This document shows positions 39,001-42,000 of a DNA stretch of 64,000 nucleotides, in pieces (within the stretch, counting starts at the first letter, position 1; each line of letters opens with the position of its first letter). Origin of the DNA: Abditibacteriaceae bacterium (GTDB lineage: Bacteria; Armatimonadota; Abditibacteriia; Abditibacteriales; Abditibacteriaceae); NCBI GenBank assembly GCA_031425655.1, contig JANPJS010000193.1:1-64000 (forward strand), written 5' to 3'. Made by a program: the position numbers.

Positions 39001-42000
39001 TCGCCAACGGCGTCAGATCACGCACGTTGGTAGCCCAAAGATTAAGAGCAGTTATTTCCTTATGCGTCGTCAATGGATTGAGATCAACAATAAGTCGGCG
39101 CCATTCTTCCTCATCGTTATTAGGCTCAAGTGATTGCAGAAGTGCCAGCTTTTCGGGGTCAAGTAATGGATTTTCTGGATTCATGCGCGGCGTCTGTGGG
39201 AGCGTGAGTTATTTATCGGAGTTTTGCGTGCCGGGCGGCAACTGCTTGCCGGATTGAAGAAGTTCCAGCTTGAGGCGTAGCTCAATTTTTTCTAACTCGT
39301 GCGCCTGATTTTCGCGCGTGCGCTGTAATTCAAACGCTAATTGGCGAACCACTAAGGTAAGATCGCGAACTTCCTGTTCCAACCGCTCGGTATTGGCACG
39401 ATTTTCCTTCAAGTCTTCGCCTAAGTTGAAGAGCAATCGTCCAAAGTTGTATATCTTTTCCCACATAATTAAAAGGAGACGGTCAGGCGCCTGCTAATTT
39501 GTTGAGGACACTTCGCGTTTCATCTAACATTCCGCTTGTTTCCATTCTCAGCCGCTCAATGCGACGCTGACTTTCGGCCATATCTTGCCGGAGATGCTCG
39601 ATTTCGACGATATAGCGCTCCACTGCCACTTCATAATCGCTGTCTTTCTGTGGCGCGGCCTGAATGATATTTGCTTTATTCATTGTTTTGCCTCCGAACT
39701 CAATTTTACAGTATCCGCCGGACACGAGCTTTGCTTGACTCACCTCCTTAAACTTCACAAAATGAAAAGGTCAACTCAGGAAACTATCATGCCCCATAAT
39801 CTTTTCGACACTTTGCAGACTTTCGACTCCGGTGCCGGACAAAACGCGCACTTTTACTCGCTGCCGCAACTGGAAAAACAAGGCTTTGCTATCTCACGCC
39901 TGCCGGTTTCAATTCGCATCGTGCTGGAATCGGTTTTACGCAACTGCGACGACCTGAAAATCGGCGAAGACGACGTGAAAACGCTGGCCGCGTGGCAGCC
40001 AAACGCGCCGCGCACCGACGAAATTCCCTTCGTGGTCGCGCGCATCGTGTTGCAGGACTTCACCGGCGTGCCTCTTTTGGTTGATCTGGCCGCCATGCGC
40101 GCCGCCGCTGCCAAATTGGGCAAAGACCCTAAGATAATCGAGCCTCTGGTGCCGGTTGACCTTGTGGTTGACCACTCGGTGCAGGTGGATTTTTCGTCCA
40201 CGTCGGACGCTTTGCGCCTCAATATGGAAATGGAATTTAAGCGCAATCAATCGCGCTACGAATTTCTCAAATGGGGAATGCAGGCTTTCGATACCTTTAG
40301 CGTTGTCCCGCCCGGCATCGGCATCGTGCATCAGGTGAACCTCGAATATCTTGCCAAAGGCGTGCTCAGCAAGGACGGCGTTTATTATCCAGACACGCTT
40401 GTCGGAACCGATTCGCACACCACGATGATTAACGGTTTGGGCATCGTCGGCTGGGGCGTGGGCGGCATCGAAGCCGAAGCCGGGATGCTCGGACAGCCGG
40501 TTTATTTCCTGACGCCCGATGTCGTCGGCGTGAATCTGACGGGCAGTTTGCGCGAAGGCGTGACGGCGACCGATTTGGCATTAGAAGTCACCGAAGCGTT
40601 GCGCGCGGCCAAAGTTGTCGGCAAATTCGTGGAGTTTTTCGGTGCGGGCGCGGCCAGCCTGCCCCTGCCCGACCGCGCGACCATCGCCAATATGGCACCG
40701 GAATATGGCGCGACGATGGGCTTTTTCCCGATTGACGAAGTGTCTTGCGAATACCTCGAAGCGACGGGCCGCACAACCGAGCAAGTCAGCGCCTTTCGCA
40801 ACTATTTCAAGGCGCAAAACCTGTTCGGAATGCCGCAGGCGGGCGACATTGACTATTCGCAAGTGCTGCAAATTAATCTCGATGAAGTCGTGCCCGGCGT
40901 GGCCGGGCCGAAGCGTCCGCAAGACCGCATCAATTTGCCGGAATTGAAAAATCGCTTTACCGAATTGTTCCAGAAACCCATCGCGGAAAGCGGCTACAAC
41001 AAAACACTGGCGCAAATGGATGAGCGTTTCGAGACGGCCATCGGCCTCACGGCGCGTTCGCCGCGCAAAATCGAGGGCGGCGGCGCGCAGGACAGCGAAT
41101 CGGCGCCGACTGCGGTTTCGGGCGAAGTGCAACACGCCGTCGCAGGCTTGGAATCGGAAAATGACACCGCCGAACTGACTGAAATCGAAATGATGCAAAA
41201 CCGGCCCACGCCGACGCATCTGAAAGTCAGCGAAGTGCCGGATGATGAATTTCCCACCGGTGTCGCGGATTTGGGACACGGCGACGTAGTCATCGCCGCG
41301 ATTACAAGCTGCACCAACACCAGCAACCCCAGCGTGATGTTAGCCGCCGGTTTAGTCGCCAAAAAAGCCGTCGAAAAAGGCATGAGCATCAAGCCGACGG
41401 TGAAAAGTTCGCTCGCGCCAGGTTCGCGCGTTGTCACGGAATATCTGGAAAAATCCGGCTTGATGCCGTATCTCGATCAGCTTGGATTTCACGTTGTCGG
41501 CTACGGCTGCACGACGTGCATCGGCAATTCTGGCCCGCTTGATCCGCGCATCGAAGATGTCGTGACTGGCAACGATTTAGTCGTCGCCAGCGTGCTTTCA
41601 GGCAATCGTAACTTCGAGGCGCGCGTGCATCAAAGCGTCAAGGCGAATTTCCTGATGTCGCCGCCGCTCGTCGTCGCCTTCGCACTTGCCGGAAATGTGG
41701 CGATTGACATGACGCAAGAGCCTTTGGGCGAAGGGCTGGATGGCCCGGTTTATCTGCGCGATATTTGGCCTACGATGGACGAAGTGCGCGATCTGTTGCA
41801 AACCTCGTTCGACGCTGACACGTTTCGTCGCATGTATGCCGATTTCGAGGCGGGAAATCCGCTGTGGAACGAAATCCACGCGCCGACCGGCAATCTTTAC
41901 GAGTGGAACACGCAGTCTACTTATATTCAGGAACCGCCATTCTTCGAGAACTTTGGCCCAGATGCGGGCACGATTTCCAATATTCAAGGCGCGCGGCCAC

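Follow-up and report, generated by a model that had tools for sequence, protein, structure and literature searches.

What do two short genes beside acnA do, and why does the same pair stand at so many other places in the genome? The window that we analysed is a stretch of 64,000 nucleotides of contig C193 in the Abditibacteriaceae assembly GCA_031425655.1 (the home genome). The genome-wide survey's note had proposed that the pair, here called A and B, is a mobile coiled-coil cassette with the pattern of a toxin-antitoxin (TA) or addiction module. Our results support a model in which it is a self-contained type II TA-like operon of a new family, with A as the putative antitoxin and B as the putative toxin, a reading that we hold with reasonable confidence. 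The locus contains the following features.

36251..38293, minus strand: ABC transporter substrate-binding gene, downstream flank (DppA/OppA-like, below cut-offs)
38312..39184, minus strand: LRR gene, 290 aa, GC 0.44 (Pfam LRR_4)
39209-39466, minus strand: gene B, putative toxin, 85 aa (open reading frame found at this place)
39483-39683, minus strand: gene A, putative antitoxin, 66 aa (open reading frame found at this place)
39691..39695, minus strand: Shine-Dalgarno GGAGG of gene A (from the sequence)
39703..39708, minus strand: -10 hexamer TAAAAT of the cassette's putative own promoter (from the sequence)
39789..42683, plus strand: acnA, divergent flank upstream of A (NCBIfam AcnA)

Gene A comes first and B follows after 16 nt. 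A has a variable N-terminal tail and then a heptad helix, at about residues 17-60, that is predicted to pair with B; B has an aromatic, mildly basic N-terminal helix, a heptad coiled coil and a conserved C-terminal motif from E46 to P77. The GC contents of the two genes are 0.49 and 0.47, compared with 0.57 for the genome. The LRR gene directly 3' of B, which is internalin-like and contains 66-nt repeats, is a local passenger outside the family unit; it was not seen beside the cassette's three closest relatives.

All eight copies that had been named before exist (contigs C56, C160, C193, C235, C257, C267, C279 and C317), and a ninth A-B pair lies on C151. The A profile gives nine matches in the home genome and the B profile ten, two of which are pieces of the single C267 gene. 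Identity over aligned columns among the nine copies is 9-42% for A and 17-46% for B, rather than the 27-44% first given. Of the neighbours listed earlier, acnA, recG, glnA and rpsL are confirmed by NCBIfam, whereas the one on C279 can be called only a ClpB/ClpC-type ATPase, below cut-off. A candidate tenth copy on contig C326 (L039, 4188-4427), where the end of an open reading frame near an HNH-like gene resembles the C-terminal motif of B, was not counted, as the likeness is weak (E 0.26).

Such a set could in principle consist of unrelated coiled-coil reading frames or spacers matched by composition, and it is true that every library match is a generic coiled coil and that the atlas recognition scores lie under the usual threshold. 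Against this, the B profile scores 67-121 bits for the home-genome copies compared with at most 30 for the next reading frames, the gene order is fixed with a median stop-to-start gap of 3 nt among 141 unique intact pairs, and purifying selection acts on both genes, with dN/dS values of 0.15 (A) and 0.08 (B) when 34 non-overlapping sequence pairs are pooled. The score gap, the constant order and spacing and the low dN/dS together argue that the family is no artefact of coiled-coil composition. A conserved motif outside the heptads, a shared promoter and covariation between the genes point the same way, and we give a chance family next to no credence: the selection and gap analysis and the covariation refute it. 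Both proteins show a/d heptad hydrophobicity, and in 95 of 99 representatives the length of the B N-terminal half differs from the reference by a multiple of seven. The AlphaFold model of B is one helix spanning residues 2-74, in agreement with the single long helix described earlier. Homology between A and B themselves was considered and is not supported (hhalign probability 3%).

The family is patchy and often multi-copy. Across 301 genomes of the phylum, a single B protein finds matches in 41, the B profile in 51 and the A profile in 48, a few of the weakest probably by chance, with up to 10-12 matches per genome; the survey's note had given 16 of 100 genomes. At the 50%-cluster level, 1,151 representatives of B are found at E ≤ 0.001, a number that falls to 563 at 1e-10, in line with the earlier figure of more than 900 relatives. 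A GTDB scan confirmed 161 stretches, and the titles of the 80 of these kept for locus work include Blastocatellia, Pyrinomonadaceae, Armatimonadota, Verrucomicrobiota, Entotheonella, Rhodothermales, Longimicrobiaceae and others. In metagenomes, 269 stretches were confirmed, of which 80 were kept. B queries gave no match among plasmids, phages and viral contigs.

No named family accounts for the pair in the libraries scanned. Pfam contained no family over cut-off for A (41 proteins scanned) or B, as the survey's note had stated. NCBIfam and PADLOC scans of B returned no named TA or defence family above cut-off, and a PHROGs scan returned no family match above cut-off. The PDB, searched by sequence, returned only generic coiled coils, and neither Foldseek with the B model nor Rfam gave a match. 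All 30 atlas matches for B were indeed without a name, and those for A score 0.81 or less. A search for longer, fused forms scored 8,000 candidates and gave one match, a B fused to a PtuA-like ATPase, which is probably a read-through; at another locus (L112) a PtuA-like ATPase neighbour is a separate gene. This single match is weak evidence that B stands alone. No description of the family appeared among the open-literature results listed for TA systems together with Armatimonadota, Blastocatellia or heterodimeric coiled coils, and the NetFlax supplements, one file of which was only partly covered, contained no match to the motif.

The boundaries of the unit are sharp. Among four close relatives, DNA likeness extends only from the Shine-Dalgarno just before the A start to the B stop. 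An extended -10 pattern lies upstream of A at 70 of 138 sites, mostly 25-30 nt before the start, compared with 9 of 480 control genes, whose starts came from a crude gene caller, and 108 of the 138 A starts have a Shine-Dalgarno-like motif. As judged from this motif, the cassette carries its own promoter. The window's hexamer is without the canonical TG extension and was not picked up by the consensus scan.

The sites of the unit show more regularity than the survey's note had it. The flanking genes were said to differ each time, at ever different sites, and this is wrong, as sites recur within lineages: among the 80 kept GTDB loci, with gene names taken from representatives, eight lie at pheS-pheT, five at sufC-sufD, five at gcvPA-gcvPB and six at a Uma2 to phytoene-desaturase-like junction. 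In 61 of 72 GTDB loci the gene upstream runs in the same direction as the cassette. The three closest relatives of the window copy, 85-87% identical in B, occupy other sites than it does: two lie at rplQ-truA, and the third lies two genes away from the same kind of ABC substrate-binding gene as in the window. The DNA upstream of acnA is different in each of three congeneric genomes. A search for shared terminal sequences or a recombinase, as in a transposable element or integron cassette, found none (one of 139 proximal reading frames is a DDE transposase; no Rfam match).

The claim that two copies lie inside gene-end duplications also needs revision. Three home-genome copies (C160, C235 and C267) sit between duplicates of the end or start of a neighbouring gene, and that on C279 sits between short repeats; such scars are not specific to the cassette. 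Direct repeats bracket it in 15 of 86 loci, one of which (L004) consists of two paralogous ATPases, compared with 4 of 300 random home-genome positions, a control that includes positions outside spacers. On C267 the glnA 3' end occurs three times (L035, 575-719, 4208-4405 and 4985-5161), and the cargo between the ends is first a CSLREA / choice-of-anchor Q gene and next the cassette; because the cargo differs, the scar belongs to the route of DNA addition and not to the cassette. Three other loci show unusual arrangements. At L041 (1175-2127 and 2689-3901), the cassette and two further cargo genes are flanked by duplications of both the rplQ end and the truA start. At L048 (4500-8600), three tandem cassettes, one with a decayed B, lie amid repeated fragments beside a TA pair that looks PIN-type by eye, and at L102 (766-2200) the cassette follows cas6 within a CRISPR-Cas operon.

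No significant enrichment of known TA genes is seen near the cassette, with 11 in the 170 kb up to 1.2 kb away compared with 9 in the 198 kb lying more than 2.2 kb away (p 0.29), as counted with a crude gene caller that missed some small genes on both sides. Adding Uma2 gives 17 compared with 11 (p 0.09), and six of those Uma2 genes represent one lineage site. The survey's guess of an addiction module had rested on dispersal alone, and parts of that picture are not supported: sites recur, the gene-end duplications are not specific to the cassette, TA neighbours are not significantly enriched and no plasmid or phage copy was found. We picture a unit that, with no mobility gene of its own, would be carried along with host DNA into variable junctions between genes and would at times leave an extra gene end behind.

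The order in which the two genes are lost helps to assign their roles. The matches listed for the phylum genomes, 150 (of 160) for A and 150 (of 159) for B, merged into 170 sites, all classed by hand, with kin sites not fully independent of one another. Both genes are intact at 91 sites, and none has an intact B with a dead A. A is intact and B lost at 57, where B is broken (38), absent (17) or reduced to an in-frame A-B fusion without its N-terminal half (2, L160 and L219); both are dead at 14, seven with both broken and seven with A broken and B absent. The remaining eight were set aside as unclear (L152, L163, L200 and L246), at an edge (L161, L185 and L245) or false (L234). Among the 162 clearly classed sites, B is dead at 71, and a broken A occurs at 14 of these and at none of the 91 sites where B is live (Fisher p 4.4e-6). 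All 38 lesions confined to one gene strike B, a 38:0 split compared with the 58:42 expected from gene length (binomial p 1e-9), and the test retains p 4e-6 with all four unclear sites counted against it.

The B-broken sites spread over 33 clusters at 60% A identity. Among the ways in which B was lost are stops near the start (L129, L150, L170, L198 and L241), interruption by an IS-like reading frame (L211) and a clean deletion at pheS-pheT (L130). Detection bias is unlikely because sites without A were sought with the B profile (20 sites, all fetched) and broken A genes were detected, and assembly errors are an unlikely cause because they would strike both genes. All 81 cassettes in the 80 kept GTDB loci, which were found through B and partly overlap the phylum set, have an intact A, and 7 have a broken B; in the 80 kept metagenome loci, both are intact in 73, B is broken in 2 and 4 lie at contig ends. 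One metagenome locus, L280 (1-240), is a possible exception: B is intact, and the A helix is without a start of its own, in frame behind an upstream reading frame that looks like the end of ribosomal protein L7/L12. Among the clearly classed phylum sites, A was lost only after B. Of the unclear sites, L163 lacks an A-like partner and the start of its B is unclear, and L152 has an altered B start and a divergent partner. Five intact-B sites that were counted as intact have partners too divergent for the first A profile or for every profile (L151, L153, L158 and L166, recognised by eye, and L164, a weak match). Upstream of B at L151, L152, L153 and L166, the divergent partners have 82-100 aa, unrelated N-termini and no more than a helix at the C-terminus; these are possibly replacement antitoxins. 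A second, solo A-like gene directly behind B gives an A-B-A order at L146 and L147.

A strict order of loss is not a general TA rule, since solo toxins and solo antitoxins are both common in known families according to part of PMC2701414. The 17 sites with A alone and the 38 with A beside a broken B would also fit a non-toxic heteromeric coiled coil in which A is the useful member and B a droppable accessory partner or inhibitor, and evidence of binding by itself implies no harm. However, B is the more conserved protein, not only in dN/dS but also in being more alike than A in 87% of comparisons, and A is broken only where B is dead, so that A seems to be needed only while B works. We consider the non-toxic reading improbable; in the preferred reading B would be toxic, as expected for a TA pair.

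Covariation provides a view of how the two proteins may meet. The top A-B pairs of columns lie on one parallel diagonal: 17 of the best 20 in 208 sequence pairs lie within j-i = -18 to -11, a band that takes up 7% of cells. The 141 pairs used to choose the band gave 16 of 20. In 67 independent metagenome pairs the count was 7 of 20 (p 4e-4), and two subsets split by lineage gave 11 and 14 of 20. By comparison, 30 random re-pairings gave 0-2, exchanging B for that of the 1st, 3rd, 5th or 10th nearest neighbour gave 6, 4, 3 and 0, and the best band in 2,000 column permutations held at most 12. Charge correlations reach -0.71 and both sign patterns occur. At A55-B41 the charges are plus/minus in 56 pairs and minus/plus in 24, with no like-charged pair, and the covarying positions look like salt bridges that exist in both polarities, although A46-B30, mostly like-charged, is an exception that counts against this. 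The lengths of the two proteins are also coupled. The A tail tracks heptad insertions in the N-terminal half of B (rho 0.57, n=99), with medians of 22, 30 and 33 residues for insertions of 0, +7 and +14, and does not track the length of the C-terminal part (rho -0.11). This pattern strongly indicates that A binds B in a parallel coiled coil whose opposite charges can change sides between pairs, and the two would then form a physical complex.

B itself shows negative charge correlations between positions five residues apart (18-23, 59-64 and 66-71), the pattern of a parallel homo-oligomer. By heptad assignment, the main A-B pairs are g to b', a contact known from four-helix coiled coils, which makes an A2B2 bundle plausible. 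The charges may also distinguish one pair from another. In the home genome, the charge score averages 3.1 for cognate pairs compared with 0.43 for non-cognate ones, and the same positions emerge when that genome is left out; the cognate pair is best or tied in only six of nine rows, which counts against the model.

The C-termini bear on which partner may be the labile one. Ala-Ala ends occur in 20 of 119 A clusters (17%, the window A not among them), compared with 1 of 119 B clusters and 64 of 4,657 home-genome genes; B C-termini are mostly acidic. In E. coli, a terminal Ala-Ala marks ClpXP degrons and is insufficient alone, as described in part of PMC10862746. The Ala-Ala end of these A proteins looks degron-like, and A is probably the unstable partner. 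A is the more acidic protein, with a mean net charge of -3.0 compared with -0.8 for B. The survey's guess of an addiction module accordingly gains support from the loss order, the A-B covariation and this degron-like end.

How B would do harm can be read in two ways. Its first 16 residues have a mean of 2.7 aromatics, a charge of +0.9 and a positive mean hydrophobicity, unlike the rest of the chain. The N-terminal half may be needed for harm, since A covers this part of B and the two natural fusions are without it; these same residues may simply be the face that A binds. Contact of the oligomer's N-terminal helix with the membrane is one candidate, to which we give somewhat less than an even chance. 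Counting against a membrane helix, the N-terminal hydrophobic moment (0.48) is not above that of B's own coil (0.52), and none of 208 B proteins has a transmembrane segment by a 19-residue window above 1.6, unlike what a holin or a type I membrane toxin would show. About equally likely is the binding of a host protein by the conserved C-terminal motif, as the most conserved B residues, E46 to P77, lie outside the A footprint and could contact such a target. No enzyme fold typical of toxins was found in B. For A, Pfam matched no DNA-binding domain among 41 proteins, and inverted repeats, as expected of an operator, are in no excess at 200 promoter regions (10% compared with 13% in shuffles).

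The pair might instead benefit its host, as an anti-phage or stress-triggered suicide device in which A holds the effector B until infection releases it. Such a device would share the molecular logic of a TA system, with which it is compatible, and would be kept by host selection rather than addiction. The strong purifying selection, the scattered occurrence in variable junctions that also house Uma2, nucleases and a PtuA-like ATPase, and the failure to find a plasmid copy all fit. However, PADLOC gives only scattered weak coiled-coil matches, none of them for the window B, B is dead at many of the classed sites, and the neighbours scanned show no consistent defence-island context. We regard this explanation as unlikely, at perhaps one chance in five.

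Taken together, our preferred TA reading would work as follows. The short promoter and Shine-Dalgarno would drive A and then B. B would form a parallel coiled-coil oligomer and, when free, would harm the cell. A would lie as a parallel helix along the N-terminal half of B, with A residue i beside B residue i-14 to i-16, masking the aromatic N-terminal helix and so neutralising B. Interface charges differ between pairs, so each A may prefer its own B, and such preference would allow many copies to accumulate in one genome. Once a unit is fixed, B would be inactivated first and A would decay later. A bolder version is a coiled-coil-only class of TA system, in which a self-assembling toxin helix is countered by an antidote helix that docks as a decoy, with a swappable code of about seven charge pairs insulating the nine paralogues; we advance this tentatively, as somewhat short of an even bet.

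If B is toxic and A rescues, the family would be a large, undescribed group of TA systems whose toxin has no known fold and, for that reason, probably a new target. Searches that require a known toxin or a DNA-binding antitoxin would pass it over, and the phyla that carry it are little studied. Because the interface is readable from sequence, insulation between paralogous TA pairs could be tested by swapping a few charges, and the one-way loss count offers a general route to unknown addiction pairs among unannotated genes. Should the coiled-coil-only class prove true, it would constitute a natural library of more than 1,000 orthogonal coiled-coil pairs together with a toxin whose target is undescribed.

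Several known systems resemble the cassette in part. In WXG100 pairs (EsxA/EsxB), as in the cassette, tandem genes encode small helical proteins, and the two partners bind one another; the cassette, however, has no WXG motif, hairpin or Pfam match and its register is parallel, not antiparallel. B also begins with an aromatic amphipathic helix, as do the MLKL four-helix bundle and the killer helices of plant CC-NLRs, whose N-terminal domains act through membranes. Here B differs in its predicted single long helix instead of a bundle, and its matches (Pfam MLKL_N, E 0.004; Sr35, E 0.13) are far below cut-off and no better than coiled-coil noise; we treat the likeness as a lead only. SpoIISA-SpoIISB(C) of Bacillus likewise pairs a small antitoxin with a non-nuclease toxin, SpoIISA being described in parts of PMC4526809 and PMC4803016 as membrane-bound and neutralised by a small antitoxin. 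In contrast, B is without a transmembrane segment, family scans gave no SpoIISA match, and in the cassette the antitoxin gene comes first. The type II systems (RelBE, MazEF, VapBC, HicAB and kin) differ from the cassette in several respects. Scans of Pfam, NCBIfam, PADLOC and PHROGs gave no sequence match to any TA family, B is without an enzyme fold, and neither a DNA-binding domain nor an operator was found, a DNA-binding antitoxin being a usual TA feature according to parts of PMC2701414 and PMC7167474; moreover, the cassette was not found on plasmids or phages, and both partners are single coiled-coil helices. Nonetheless, it shares with these systems an operon of two small genes with the antitoxin first, a patchy spread with several copies per genome, a more acidic antitoxin (the usual pattern in the relevant part of PMC4803016), chromosomal decay by nonsense mutation or deletion as parts of PMC7167474 and PMC2654758 describe for known TA loci, and, as the covariation suggests, direct binding of the two proteins.
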